A stretch of 64,000 nucleotides of DNA, taken from NCBI RefSeq assembly GCF_016026235.1, contig NZ_CP065613.1. The stretch is one strand, 5' to 3'. The stretch comes from Escherichia coli. GTDB lineage: Bacteria > Pseudomonadota > Gammaproteobacteria > Enterobacterales > Enterobacteriaceae. Below are positions 18,065 to 31,622 of the stretch, piece by piece (within the stretch, counting starts at the first letter, position 1; every line of letters begins with the position of its first letter). The notes beneath the pieces were generated by a model. The model was not told the origin of the DNA. It searched no databases and saw nothing but the letters and a program-made list of their open reading frames with translations. The position numbers were made by a program, and so were the translations under genes.

Positions 18065-19252
18065 ATGAACTTATCCCTACGACGCTCTACCAGCGCCCTT
18101 CTTGCCTCGTCGTTGTTATTAACCATCGGACGCGGCGCTACGCTGCCATTTATGACCATTTACTTGAGTCGCCAGTACAGCCTGAGTGTCGATCTAATCG
18201 GTTATGCGATGACAATTGCGCTCACTATTGGCGTCGTTTTTAGCCTCGGTTTTGGTATCCTGGCGGATAAGTTCGACAAGAAACGCTATATGTTACTGGC
18301 AATTACCGCCTTCGCCAGCGGTTTTATTGCCATTCCTTTAGTGAATAACGTAACGCTGGTGGTGCTCTTTTTTGCCCTCATTAACTGCGCCTATTCTGTT
18401 TTTGCTACCGTGCTGAAAGCCTGGTTTGCCGACAATCTTTCGTCCACCAGCAAAACGAAAATCTTCTCAATCAACTACACCATGCTAATCATTGGCTGGA
18501 CCATCGGTCCGCCGCTCGGCACGCTGTTGGTGATGCAGAGCATCAATCTGCCCTTCTGGCTGGCAGCTATCTGTTCCGCGTTTCCCATGCTTTTCATTCA
18601 AATTTGGGTAAAGCGCAGCGAGAAAATCATCGCCACGGAAACAGGCAGTGTCTGGTCGCCGAAAGTTTTATTACAAGATAAAGCACTGTTGTGGTTTACC
18701 TGCTCTGGTTTTCTGGCTTCTTTTGTAAGCGGCGCATTTGCTTCATGCATTTCACAATATGTGATGGTGATTGCTGATGGGGATTTTGCCGAAAAGGTGG
18801 TCGCGGTTGTTCTTCCGGTGAATGCTGCCATGGTGGTTACGTTGCAATATTCCGTGGGCCGCCGACTTAACCCGGCTAACATCCGCGCGCTGATGACAGC
18901 AGGCACCCTCTGTTTCGTCATCGGTCTGGTCGGTTTTATTTTTTCCGGCAACAGCCTGCTATTGTGGGGTATGTCAGCTGCGGTATTTACTGTCGGTGAA
19001 ATCATTTATGCGCCGGGCGAGTATATGTTGATTGACCATATTGCGCCGCCAGGAATGAAAGCCAGCTATTTTTCCGCCCAGTCTTTAGGCTGGCTTGGTG
19101 CCGCGATTAACCCATTAGTGAGTGGCGTAGTGCTAACCAGCCTGCCGCCTTCCTCGCTGTTTGTCATCTTAGCGTTGGTGATCATTGCTGCGTGGGTGCT
19201 GATGTTAAAAGGGATTCGTGCAAGACCGTGGGGGCAGCCCGCGCTTTGTTGA
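18065..19252 (+). CDS. ydeE: MFS transporter YdeE
   Basis: 395-aa 12-TM-type ORF. Confidence 0.85.
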   Translation: MNLSLRRSTSALLASSLLLTIGRGATLPFMTIYLSRQYSLSVDLIGYAMTIALTIGVVFSLGFGILADKFDKKRYMLLAITAFASGFIAIPLVNNVTLVVLFFALINCAYSVFATVLKAWFADNLSSTSKTKIFSINYTMLIIGWTIGPPLGTLLVMQSINLPFWLAAICSAFPMLFIQIWVKRSEKIIATETGSVWSPKVLLQDKALLWFTCSGFLASFVSGAFASCISQYVMVIADGDFAEKVVAVVLPVNAAMVVTLQYSVGRRLNPANIRALMTAGTLCFVIGLVGFIFSGNSLLLWGMSAAVFTVGEIIYAPGEYMLIDHIAPPGMKASYFSAQSLGWLGAAINPLVSGVVLTSLPPSSLFVILALVIIAAWVLMLKGIRARPWGQPALC

Positions 19253-19378
19253 TTTAAGTCGAACACAATAAAAATTTAATTCAGCCTTCGTTTAGGTTAC
19301 CTCTGCTAATATCTTTCTCATTGAGATGAAAATTAAGGTAAGCGAGGAAACACACCACACCATAAACGGAGGCAAATA

Positions 19379-19474
19379 ATGCTGGGTAATATGAATGTTT
19401 TTATGGCCGTACTGGGAATAATTTTATTTTCTGGTTTTCTGGCCGCGTATTTCAGCCACAAATGGGATGACTAA
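19379..19474 (+). CDS. mgtS: Small membrane protein MgtS (YneM), 31 aa
   Basis: Hand translation gives MLGNMNVFMAVLGIILFSGFLAAYFSHKWDD then TAA; shorter than the ORF-track minimum. Confidence 0.85.
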   Translation: MLGNMNVFMAVLGIILFSGFLAAYFSHKWDD

Positions 19475-19501
19475 TGAACGGAGATAATCCCTCACCTAAC
19501 C

Positions 19502-19540
19502 GGCCCCTTGTTACAGTTGTGTACAAGGGGCCTGATTTTT
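19502..19540 (+). terminator. Rho-independent terminator after mgtS
   Basis: GGCCCCTTGT...ACAAGGGGCC hairpin followed by a T-run. Confidence 0.6.
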
Positions 19541-19549
19541 ATGACGGCG

Positions 19550-19650
19550 AAAAAAAACCGCCAGTAAACCGGCGGTGAATGCTTGCATGGATAGATTTGT
19601 GTTTTGCTTTTACGCTAACAGGCATTTTCCTGCACTGATAACGGATCGTT
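19550..19650 (-). ncRNA. mgrR: Probable PhoP-dependent sRNA MgrR; ends approximate
   Basis: Minus-strand terminator (hairpin ACCGCCGGTTTACTGGCGG then U8, plus coordinates 19550-19575) about 100 nt downstream of a PhoP-box direct repeat; position between mgtS and dgcZ matches recall of the K-12 layout. Confidence 0.45.
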
Positions 19651-19682
19651 GACACAGTAGCATCAGTTTTCTCAATGAATGT

Positions 19683-19699
19683 TAAACGGAGCTTAAACT
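19683..19699 (-). promoter_or_regulatory. PhoP box-like direct repeat AGTTTA-N5-CGTTTA (minus strand) overlapping the dgcZ stop codon; candidate mgrR promoter element
   Basis: Reverse complement of 19683-19699 is AGTTTAAGCTCCGTTTA, matching the (T/G)GTTTA-N5-(T/G)GTTTA consensus spacing. Confidence 0.4.
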
Positions 19700-20583
19700 C
19701 GGTTAATCACATTTTGTTCGTCAATAAACATGCAGCGATTTCTTCCGGTTTGCTTACCCTCATACATTGCCCGGTCTGCTCTTCCAATGACCACATCCAG
19801 AGGCTCTTCAGGAAATGCGCGACTCACACCTGCTGTCACGGTAATGTTGATATGCCCTTCAGAATGTGTGATGGCATGGTTATCGACTAACTGGCAAATT
19901 CTGACACCTGCACGACATGCTTCTTCATCATTAGCCGCTTTAACAATAATGATAAATTCTTCGCCCCCGTAGCGATAAACCGTTTCGTAATCACGCGTCC
20001 AACTGGCTAAGTAAGTTGCCAGGGTGCGTAATACTACATCGCCGATTAAATGCCCGTAGGTATCATTAACCAATTTAAATCGGTCAATATCCAACAACAT
20101 TAAATAAAGATTCAGAGGCTCAGCGTTGCGTAACTGATGATCAAAGGATTCATCAAGAACCCGACGACCCGGCAATCCCGTCAAAACATCCATATTGCTA
20201 CGGATCGTCAGCAAATAAATTTTGTAATCGGTTAATGCCGCAGTAAAAGAAAGCAACCCCTCCTGAAAGGCGTCGAAATGCGCGTCCTGCCAGTGATTTT
20301 CAACAATAGCCAGCATTAATTCCCGACCACAATTATGCATATGTTGATGGGCAGAATCCATTAGCCGAACGTAAGGTAATTCATCGTTATCGAGTGGCCC
20401 CAGATGATCAATCCACCGACCAAACTGGCACAGTCCATAAGAATGGTTATCCGTTATTTCTGGCTTACTGGCATCTCTCGCGACCACGCTGTGAAACATA
20501 CTCACCAGCCACTGGTAGTGGGCATCGATAGCCTTATTGAGATTTAACAAGATGGCATCAATTTCCGTTGTCTTCTTGATCAT
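19693..20583 (-). CDS. dgcZ: Zinc-sensing diguanylate cyclase DgcZ (YdeH)
   Basis: ORF 19693-20589; protein from MIKKTTEIDAILLNL...; RYGGEEF GGDEF motif and N-terminal His/Cys-containing sensor region. Confidence 0.9.
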   Translation of the reverse strand: MIKKTTEIDAILLNLNKAIDAHYQWLVSMFHSVVARDASKPEITDNHSYGLCQFGRWIDHLGPLDNDELPYVRLMDSAHQHMHNCGRELMLAIVENHWQDAHFDAFQEGLLSFTAALTDYKIYLLTIRSNMDVLTGLPGRRVLDESFDHQLRNAEPLNLYLMLLDIDRFKLVNDTYGHLIGDVVLRTLATYLASWTRDYETVYRYGGEEFIIIVKAANDEEACRAGVRICQLVDNHAITHSEGHINITVTAGVSRAFPEEPLDVVIGRADRAMYEGKQTGRNRCMFIDEQNVINRV

Positions 20584-31046: not shown

Positions 31047-31622
31047 CTACGGCAGTGCTGGCCATTCAATATCCTGTGCAGTTGACGTATCAACACGGTT
31101 CAGCAATACCCGATACTTTTTCCATGCTTCCAGCAACGAGATTTCTTCCTCCGTTGCAATTTCCAGATCTGCAGCATCCTGAAGCGGCGCAATATGCTCA
31201 CTGGCTACCTGCATCAGGTTGTTTTTTGTTTCTTCCGCCTCCCGGATCCGGAACAGTTTTTCTGCTTCCGTATCCTTCACCCAGGCTGTGCCGTTCCACT
31301 TCTGAAACTCCCCTTCCGGCGATAACCAGGTAACATTTTCCGGTAACGGACCGAGTTCAGAAATAAATAACGCGTCGCCGGAAGCCACGTCATAAACCGT
31401 TTTACCCCGATGATCTTCAACGAGATGCCACGATGACTCATCACTGTTGAAAACAGCCACGAAGCCAGCCGGAATATCTGGCGGTGCAATATCGGTACTG
31501 TTTGCTGGCAGACCTGTATGAGGCGGAATATATGCATCACCTTCACCAATAAATTCATTAGTTCCGGCCAGCAGATTATAAATTTTTATGGTCCGTGGTT
31601 GTTCACTCATTCTGAATGCCAT
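31047..31622 (-). CDS. tfaQ: Tail fiber assembly protein Tfa
   Basis: 191-aa ORF directly downstream of the stf C-terminal segment. Confidence 0.85.

Follow-up and report, generated by a model that had tools for sequence, protein, structure and literature searches.

The mgtS-mgtT/mgrR magnesium-stress locus between ydeE and dgcZ in an Escherichia coli genome, compared with K-12 and related genera

A described magnesium-stress locus

In Escherichia coli K-12 MG1655, the genes mgtS (b4599), mgtT (b4775), and mgrR (b4698) lie together at 1622646-1622914 of NC_000913.3. Transcription of mgtS and mgrR is convergent and PhoPQ-dependent (10.1101/2021.06.30.450655; PMC6239178; PMC11429745), and mgtT, also PhoQP-dependent, is in an operon with mgtS (PMC11429745). 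An ARN motif, a seed, and a terminator have been described for MgrR (10.1101/2021.06.30.450655), and pitA was recovered as a MgrR partner in RIL-seq (PMC12721325), a source that likewise reports PhoP dependence of mgrR. The Salmonella counterparts are STnc560 (MgrR, RF01407), a ~90-nt Hfq-enriched or Hfq-bound sRNA convergent with the yneM/mgtS transcript, and STnc570 (the yneM ORF, mgtS mRNA), which is ~190 nt long and encoded on the strand opposite STnc560 (PMC2515195). The natural dual-function RNA SgrS/SgrT likewise unites a small protein and a base-pairing sRNA in the response to one stress (10.1101/2021.06.30.450655); unlike SgrS/SgrT, the activities of MgtS and MgrR reside on separate convergent transcripts and have been joined in one RNA only artificially (MgtSR). 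Published work has MgtS interacting with the Mg2+ importer MgtA and raising both the level of MgtA and intracellular Mg2+. MgtS reportedly also modulates the phosphate symporter PitA, going by the title of Yin et al. 2019.

We analyzed a window of 64,000 nucleotides (the whole stretch of DNA under study) from a strain background other than K-12, with 165 differences from it over 4.5 kb. Positions 19278-19699 of the window are almost certainly the ydeE/dgcZ intergenic region with the E. coli mgtS-mgtT/mgrR locus, comprising two convergent transcription units of the PhoQ/PhoP low-Mg2+ response (Table 1). Genes, order, strands, and neighbours were the same as in K-12, with the co-linear arrangement eamA-ydeE-mgtS-mgtT-mgrR-dgcZ-ydeI in both. 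In the alignment mgtS and mgtT were identical, and so were the 73 nt upstream of mgrR; mgrR itself agreed at 97 of 98 bases, the ydeE-mgtS spacer differed at 1 of 126 bases, and a SNP at 19273 was located upstream of the mgtS box. From this identity with K-12 we infer that the transcription units of the present strain would be PhoP-dependent as well. PhoQP dependence, Hfq binding, the targets of MgrR, and the MgtA interaction are taken here from the literature; sequence identity, family matches, structures, and promoter-motif conservation are from the present analysis.

The magnesium-stress locus is already known and well studied, and nothing at it is new. As a discovery it carries little weight, MgtS, MgtT, and MgrR being annotated in K-12 and experimentally studied since 2008-2009; its value is for annotation, in that two small-protein genes and an sRNA gene escape ORF-length filters. 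The 31-aa and 34-aa ORFs would be below a usual 60-aa threshold. Of 5426 complete E. coli genomes, 5416 contain the 561-bp region, which bears mgtS/mgtT annotation in the 25 records listed. In the two PGAP RefSeq records inspected, mgtS and mgtT were annotated and mgrR was absent.

Table 1. Coordinates of the features of the mgtS-mgtT/mgrR locus and its flanking genes within the window
Feature	Position	Strand	Basis or remark
ydeE	18065-19252	+	flanking gene
mgtS PhoP-box-like repeat, AATTCA-GCCTT-CGTTTA (AATTCAGCCTTCGTTTA)	19278-19294	+	read from sequence
mgtS putative -10 hexamer, TAATAT	19307-19312	+	sequence; conserved TAnnAT column block
mgtS (formerly yneM) CDS, 31-aa single-helix membrane protein	19379-19474	+	0 mismatches to K-12 b4599
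mgtT CDS, 34 aa	19474-19578	+	0 mismatches to K-12 b4775
mgtS intrinsic terminator	19502-19540	+	hairpin 19502-19532, T5 at 19536-19540
mgrR, 98-nt Hfq-dependent sRNA	19550-19647	-	K-12 ncRNA b4698, 1 mismatch at 19644
MgrR terminator	stem 19576-19557, U8 19557-19550	-	8-pair stem; last stem base is first U of U8
mgrR extended -10, TGcTACTGT	19654-19662	-	sequence; hexamer TACTGT 19659-19654
mgrR putative PhoP box, AGTTTA-AGCTC-CGTTTA (AGTTTAAGCTCCGTTTA)	19683-19699	-	sequence; -52 to -36 from annotated +1
dgcZ CDS	19693-20583	-	K-12 annotation, 3 mismatches; upstream of mgrR, strand shared with mgrR

The comparative sample consisted of 34 loci for MgrR, an alignment of 30 sequences upstream of mgtS, and 31 loci for the terminator and the start of mgtT. 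Homologues of MgtS in these loci were located by tblastn together with a sequence pattern, and they include H-for-N variants. No MgtS match was present in 4 of the 34 loci (L030, C. amalonaticus L013, Lelliottia L034, and Huaxiibacter L036); for L030 mgtS would be expected past the point where the locus stops. Enterobacteriaceae sequence in a Caldithrix MAG (L005) and in a 'Chryseobacterium' assembly (L031) was treated as contamination, not as a sign of wider distribution. In the Salmonella loci (L016 and L029) the MgrR core and terminator, mgtS, and the proximal half-site of the PhoP box are shared with the window, and MgtS is 81% identical.

The mgtS transcription unit

The mgtS frame, translated as MLGNMNVFMAVLGIILFSGFLAAYFSHKWDD, is preceded by a Shine-Dalgarno sequence, GGAGG, at 19368-19372, 6 nt 5' of the ATG. 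The protein is identical to K-12 YP_001165319.1 and, over residues 1-31 of 31, matched both the NCBIfam equivalog NF033842 (80.6 bits, cut-off 35) and Pfam PF22865 (88.2 bits, cut-off 27). MgtS proteins were 81-100% identical across 30 loci from at least 10 genera, 30 of the 34 loci had the gene next to the MgrR core in convergent orientation, and pN/pS for mgtS was 0.07, showing that MgtS is under strong purifying selection. Beyond the gene, the terminator hairpin comprises 13 pairs (-22.6 kcal/mol, z -4.1, with 0 of 200 shuffles folding as well) and is followed by UGAUUUUUA; the hairpin GGCCCCTTG...CAAGGGGCC and then a T-run were conserved in 31 of 31 loci examined. The initial annotation had recognized MgtS in this 31-codon frame, had staked its reading on the conservation of the frame, and had placed a strong plus-strand terminator 3' of it, and on all three points the comparison bore it out. 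A simple terminator scan did not list the mgtS terminator, whose hairpin was seen by folding; this terminator and that of MgrR each fold significantly better than shuffles. Most mgtS transcripts should stop at the hairpin, which is inside mgtT, and a terminator so placed probably limits the synthesis of MgtT.

The PhoP-box-like repeat upstream of mgtS has a good proximal and a weak distal half-site, with 4 mismatches to the PhoP-box consensus (T/G)GTTTA-N5-(T/G)GTTTA of PMC7667037, and at a criterion of two mismatches or fewer the proximal half-site alone qualifies. In the 30-sequence alignment, ATTCA/ATTAA-N6-GTTTA was conserved upstream of mgtS, and the putative -10 hexamer is 12 nt downstream of the proximal half-site, which would put the start of transcription near 19319-19320. 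A PhoP-type promoter of this composition (half-site CGTTTA, 12 nt, -10 TAATAT) would produce a short plus-strand mRNA encoding MgtS, a 31-aa inner-membrane protein, and the same mRNA would also carry the out-of-frame ORF mgtT.

MgrR and its promoter

On the minus strand, the initial annotation had pointed to a repeat AGTTTA-N5-CGTTTA over the dgcZ stop, a canonical terminator some 100-130 nt beyond it, and between them an sRNA-sized interval consistent with MgrR. The repeat is present at 19699-19683. Measured from it, the terminator stem begins at 107 nt and the U-run is complete at 133 nt, in keeping with the stated distance, and the interval is MgrR both by its agreement with b4698 and by its match to Rfam RF01407 (STnc560, the Salmonella name of MgrR; 281.9 bits, E 1.8e-64, gathering score 55). 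That reading is left standing by the three elements it had omitted, namely mgtT (19474-19578), the mgtS promoter (19278-19312), which is upstream of the interval that the annotation covered, and the 5' end of MgrR.

The single difference from K-12 is at MgrR nucleotide 4, which is C here and U in K-12, C being the majority allele in the cross-genus alignment. MgrR folds at -25.9 kcal/mol (z -2.9) and contains a 5' stem-loop (19643-19613), an (ARN)3 motif, AAAAGCAAA, at 19611-19603, and a conserved single-stranded core at approximately 19605-19578. Across the alignment of 34 sequences 89% of cells were paired and 10 pairs had changed on both sides, which 0 of 500 shuffles reached, so that the helices are supported by compensatory changes. 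By sequence, the putative Hfq-binding modules are the ARN motif and the 8-pair terminator stem with its U8. MgrR would bind Hfq via this motif and the U-rich terminator, and would repress the eptB, ygdQ, and pitA mRNAs, among others, by base-pairing via the conserved single-stranded core.

The candidate mgrR box ends 36 nt upstream of the annotated 5' end of MgrR and, with 2 mismatches to the consensus of PMC7667037, qualifies at two mismatches or fewer. It overlaps the dgcZ stop codon (19693-19695), so its distal half-site is within the last two codons of dgcZ. With both strands counted, the 64-kb window had a single occurrence of GTTTA-N6-GTTTA (0.14 expected), and 14 of 100 shuffles had one or more, so the repeat alone is modest evidence only; the weight of the box rests on position and conservation. 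The hexamer TACTGT stops 6 nt short of the +1, annotated at 19647. Of the 34 loci, which represent at least 10 genera, 33 keep the proximal yGTTTA together with the extended -10 TGnTAnnnT, the TA..T columns being invariant. An alternative -10, AAAACT (19670-19665), located 12 nt past the box and giving an RNA of ~109 nt, was rejected: its hexamer is not conserved, TGnTAnnnT is, and the K-12 +1 is annotated at the equivalent of 19647. The candidate box at -52 to -36 and the extended -10 would direct synthesis of the minus-strand 98-nt MgrR.

Both promoters resemble the classical PhoP-activated ones, in which the box is at the -35 region, in having a poor -35 and two half-sites spaced by one helical turn, the proximal of which is yGTTTA. 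They differ from the classical promoters in that the mgtS box ends 12 nt and the mgrR box 23 nt from the -10, the latter being about one helical turn further upstream than in the mgtS promoter, and in the first base of the half-site, which is A or C here versus T or G in the classical consensus. The promoter motifs of both mgtS and mgrR were conserved in at least 10 genera.

Two other accounts of MgrR were weighed against that of a 98-nt sRNA with its own promoter. MgrR might arise by processing from the 3' end of dgcZ mRNA, with the PhoP-like repeat over the dgcZ stop a chance match: the genes share a strand and are 46 nt apart, the terminator scan found no terminator-like site from the dgcZ stop to MgrR, so that dgcZ transcripts probably reach the MgrR terminator, and the repeat alone, by the shuffles above, is not significant. 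We nevertheless regard this as highly improbable, given that the proximal half-site and TGnTAnnnT are kept in all but one of the 34 loci although, between genera, conservation does not extend upstream of the box, that mgrR transcription is reported to be PhoP/PhoQ-dependent (PMC6239178; 10.1101/2021.06.30.450655), and that the flanking gene upstream of MgrR in Salmonella is ydeI, not dgcZ as here (PMC2515195), so that the box there is without the overlap with a dgcZ stop. It is just as hard to credit that the functional RNA is the whole stretch covered by the Rfam model, which aligns end to end (19468-19681, model positions 1-214 of 214). The 214-nt model begins upstream of the annotated +1, within the mgrR promoter, and continues past the strong U8 terminator to take in, as reverse complement, the terminator and stop codon of mgtS; its extra length owes its conservation to the mgtS 3' region and the mgrR promoter, both of which lie within the span. 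The K-12 annotation is 98 nt, and with a Salmonella band of ~90 nt (PMC2515195) the Rfam span was rejected as the boundaries of MgrR.

The mgtT reading frame

As a side result of the comparison, MgtS and the MgrR core were strongly conserved and the MgtT reading frame was not. The ATG of mgtT overlaps the mgtS stop (TAATG), and the ORF spans the mgtS terminator hairpin, with its 3' part antisense to the 3'-terminal 29 nt of MgrR. MgtT of the window matched Pfam PF23498 at 96.3 bits (gathering threshold 27), and the 34-aa protein was alignable at full length only between E. coli and E. albertii. Conservation as a protein was not found beyond Escherichia, the frame having 8-83 codons in other genera; in Salmonella it has 41-60 codons and a different C-terminus, and in Citrobacter Res13 it also has 34 codons, again with a different C-terminus. 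Within Escherichia, where the frame of E. whittamii contains a frameshift, pN/pS was ~1.8-1.9 for mgtT versus 0.20 for mgtS, values based on small counts, and the MgtT frame, unlike MgtS, is not under strong purifying selection. This weak conservation bears on whether MgtT is a selected protein; the identity of the ORF with E. coli mgtT is unaffected.

Whether MgtT is a protein with a selected Mg2+-response function of its own, and not a by-product of translation in the 3' region of mgtS, has to be judged against these data. MgtT is translated and was detected by tagging (10.1101/511675), its induction in low Mg2+ is PhoQ-dependent (10.1101/511675; PMC11429745), a Pfam family exists for it, all 31 loci examined have the overlapping ATG, and codons 1-8 were under some constraint (pN/pS 0.38). 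Apart from the variable length of the frame, its frameshift, and its pN/pS, the conserved residues NRPLV, KGP, and GEKKPPVNRR are encoded where the sequence also forms the arms of the mgtS terminator and lies antisense to the MgrR terminator, which suggests that overlapping RNA elements account for what is conserved in MgtT. Neither deletion nor overexpression of mgtT produced a phenotype (PMC11429745), with which a non-conserved frame agrees. A selected function for MgtT is in our judgement unlikely. Still more doubtful, and put forward as speculation from the geometry of ORF and hairpin and a weak codon periodicity, is that an ORF at the mgtT position could be conserved for the ribosome that invades the terminator hairpin and not for its peptide, and might in this way adjust how the mgtS mRNA terminates or how stable its 3' end is, and with that the read-through transcription antisense to MgrR; if so, the two PhoP-dependent genes would be coupled. 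In every genus examined a short ORF begins where T(A/G)ATG overlaps the mgtS stop and has the conserved N-terminus M-N-x-D-N/S-P-x-P. Among the other genera this ORF stops at the foot of the terminator hairpin of mgtS (7 loci), in the hairpin loop (8 loci), or beyond.

Layout of the mgtS-mgtT/mgrR locus

The interval between ydeE and dgcZ is an already known, well characterised locus, and its features, placed by moving K-12 coordinates to the window with a constant offset of 17232, keep the K-12 order of mgtS, mgtT, mgrR (opposite strand), and dgcZ. From the sequence alone, the initial annotation had described MgtS, a probable MgrR, and a terminator for each; its reading of the locus is supported and every observation was confirmed, although it overlooked mgtT and the mgtS promoter, which sits upstream of the interval it covered (19379-19700). 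In the alignment to K-12, mgtS has no mismatches, nor does mgtT, mgrR has one (19644, RNA nucleotide 4), and the 73 nt 5' of mgrR are the same. By megablast, 19200-19760 was matched in 5416 of 5426 complete E. coli genomes, with ydeE, mgtS, mgtT, and dgcZ annotated in the 25 records listed. The PGAP annotation of two E. coli genomes (L002 and L037) lists mgtS and mgtT and has no mgrR ncRNA feature, unlike the curated K-12 record, which carries one. An IS1 is inserted at the ydeE 3' end, immediately before the promoter region of mgtS, in L037 (NZ_CM148369.1) and in a further E. coli genome, H2 (NZ_CP024155.1).

Features of the locus, in window coordinates
Feature	Position	Strand	Basis or remark
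ydeE	18065-19252	+	flank of interval
mgtS putative PhoP-box-like repeat, AATTCA-GCCTT-CGTTTA	19278-19294	+	sequence
mgtS −10 candidate, TAATAT	19307-19312	+	12 nt past repeat
mgtS SD, GGAGG	19368-19372	+	5' of mgtS ORF
mgtS (b4599)	19379-19474	+	K-12 annotation
mgtT (b4775)	19474-19578	+	K-12 annotation
mgrR ncRNA (b4698), 98 nt	19550-19647	−	K-12 annotation
MgrR terminator stem, 8 pairs, then T8	19576-19557	−	folding/terminator scan
mgrR extended −10, TGcTACTGT	19662-19654	−	5' of annotated +1 at 19647
mgrR predicted PhoP box, AGTTTA-AGCTC-CGTTTA	19699-19683	−	sequence; over dgcZ stop
dgcZ	19693-20583	−	other flank; stop codon 19693-19695

mgtS and its relatives

The 31-codon mgtS ORF encodes MLGNMNVFMAVLGIILFSGFLAAYFSHKWDD, which matched NCBIfam NF033842 (80.6 bits, threshold 35) and Pfam PF22865 (88.2 bits, threshold 27). 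MgtS binds MgtA, a Mg2+ importer whose level it increases, and mgtS and mgrR are convergently transcribed, both depending on PhoQ/PhoP in low Mg2+ (10.1101/2021.06.30.450655). An exact 20-mer of the MgrR core, searched in a species-representative genome collection, returned 34 loci from Escherichia, Salmonella, Citrobacter, Kosakonia, Phytobacter, Pluralibacter, Enterobacter, Lelliottia, Huaxiibacter, and unnamed Enterobacteriaceae, a sample conditioned on that core and thus biased toward relatives retaining it. mgtS adjoins MgrR convergently in 30 of these, with 81-100% protein identity. In the mgtS upstream alignment ATTCA/ATTAA-N6-GTTTA, the 12-nt spacing, and TAnnAT are kept across loci. 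The strong plus-strand terminator noted initially is a 13-pair hairpin (19502-19532; −22.6 kcal/mol, z −4.1, equalled in stability by 0/200 shuffles) followed by UGAUUUUUA, and was found in 31/31 loci.

The mgtS 5' leader also contains a near-invariant block across genera, AGGTAAGnGAGG (19336-19347, +), roughly 30 nt before the actual SD, with its GAGG unchanged in 30/30 sequences; the block resembles an additional SD-like or regulatory element. Two of the 20-mer hits place Enterobacteriaceae mgtS/MgrR sequence on contigs of a Caldithrix MAG (L005, SMXE01000224.1; MgtS, MgtT, and the compared junction identical to E. coli) and of 'Chryseobacterium sp. 18061' (L031), both probably contaminated assemblies or bins. 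In Enterobacteriaceae bacterium RIT691 (L010), the MgrR core and terminator occur twice, 1.6 kb apart (1441-1460 and 3035-3054), with two ORFs (127 and 177 aa) between them; the conserved PhoP half-site and extended −10 are missing from the copy adjoining mgtS, the distal copy retains both, and the arrangement looks as if an insertion had duplicated the terminator region.

MgrR, its promoter, and its sources

The sRNA-sized transcript proposed on the minus strand corresponds to MgrR, which matched Rfam RF01407 (STnc560) with 281.9 bits (threshold 55) over 19468-19681 (−); this 214-nt span was rejected as the RNA itself, as it takes in promoter sequence and extends over the mgtS 3' region in reverse complement. 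An unrelated second Rfam match in the window, RF02111 (IS009), is full length at 31081-31279 (−; 220.9 bits, gathering score 117). The MgrR fold (−25.9 kcal/mol, z −2.9) comprises a 5' stem-loop, a single-stranded (ARN)3 motif, AAAAGCAAA, with the core likewise unpaired, and a terminator with U8. Across the 34 sequences, which are related and one of which supplied the structure, 89% of cells in two helices are paired and 10 pairs changed on both sides, a pairing equalled in 0/500 shuffles (slid controls, 29-45%). MgrR belongs to the class II Hfq sRNAs and represses both eptB and ygdQ (PMC6239178), with pitA a further pairing partner (PMC12721325; also according to the title of Yin et al. 2019). 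In Salmonella, STnc560 is a candidate sRNA of ~90 nt between ydeI and ydeE with 29-fold Hfq enrichment, and the 'yneM ORF' transcript STnc570 (~190 nt) lies on the opposite strand (PMC2515195). The sequence features fit the published PhoQ/PhoP-Hfq picture.

The predicted mgrR box, at −52 to −36, has 2 mismatches to the consensus (T/G)GTTTA-N5-(T/G)GTTTA (quoted in PMC7667037); the −35 is poor, and the box ends 23 nt from the −10, versus 12 nt for mgtS. GTTTA-N6-GTTTA occurs once in the window (0.14 expected), and since 14/100 shuffles also gave at least one match, the motif on its own is weak evidence; the weight lies on its location and conservation. The proximal half-site yGTTTA is present in 33/34 loci, together with a TTCATTGAG block and TGnTAnnnT, while the distal half-site is partially retained (AGTT) and sequence further upstream was not alignable.

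A rival source of MgrR, very unlikely to be the sole one, would be dgcZ mRNA. The two share a strand and the terminator scan found no terminator-like site between them (19647-19695, −), so dgcZ mRNA probably ends at the MgrR terminator, with the complete MgrR sequence probably forming the 3' end of dgcZ transcripts. However, this mRNA cannot be the only source, because the mgrR promoter elements are also conserved where the neighbour is other than dgcZ.

Translation and selection of mgtT

The mgtT ATG overlaps the mgtS stop (GAC TAATG AAC), and its 34-codon frame crosses the mgtS hairpin and U-run to a stop at 19576-19578, its end antisense to the final 29 nt of MgrR. MgtT matched Pfam PF23498 (96.3 bits, threshold 27); ribosome profiling revealed it and epitope tagging showed it at levels below MgtS (10.1101/511675), and it is PhoQP-dependent, in an operon with mgtS, not membrane-bound, and without phenotype on deletion or overexpression (PMC11429745). 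The overlapping ATG is present in 31/31 loci, with frames of 8 to 83 codons: the stop falls in the hairpin loop in 8, just past the hairpin (24-27 codons) in 4, and near the MgrR terminator in 9, and the frame runs through the MgrR antisense in 3. In the remaining 7 loci it ends after 8-9 codons, exactly at the hairpin foot. E. whittamii has a frameshift.

With small counts, non-independent pairs, and some sites constrained by RNA structure, pN/pS within Escherichia was about 1.8-1.9 for mgtT and 0.20 for mgtS, and over all loci 0.38 for mgtT codons 1-8 and 0.07 for mgtS. The conserved MgtT residues NRPLV and KGP coincide with the two hairpin arms, and GEKKPPVNRR with the antisense of the MgrR terminator. 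MgtT is translated, yet appears to be without visible protein-level selection, in agreement with the published absence of phenotype, and a selected function for the protein seems unlikely. Speculatively, ribosomes on the short overlapping ORF could act on the mgtS terminator, thereby coupling both convergent genes.

Directly after the mgtS stop, TGAACGGAGATAATCCC (19475-19491, +) is conserved across genera, varying mainly at mgtT-frame third positions (GAy, CCy, CCn).
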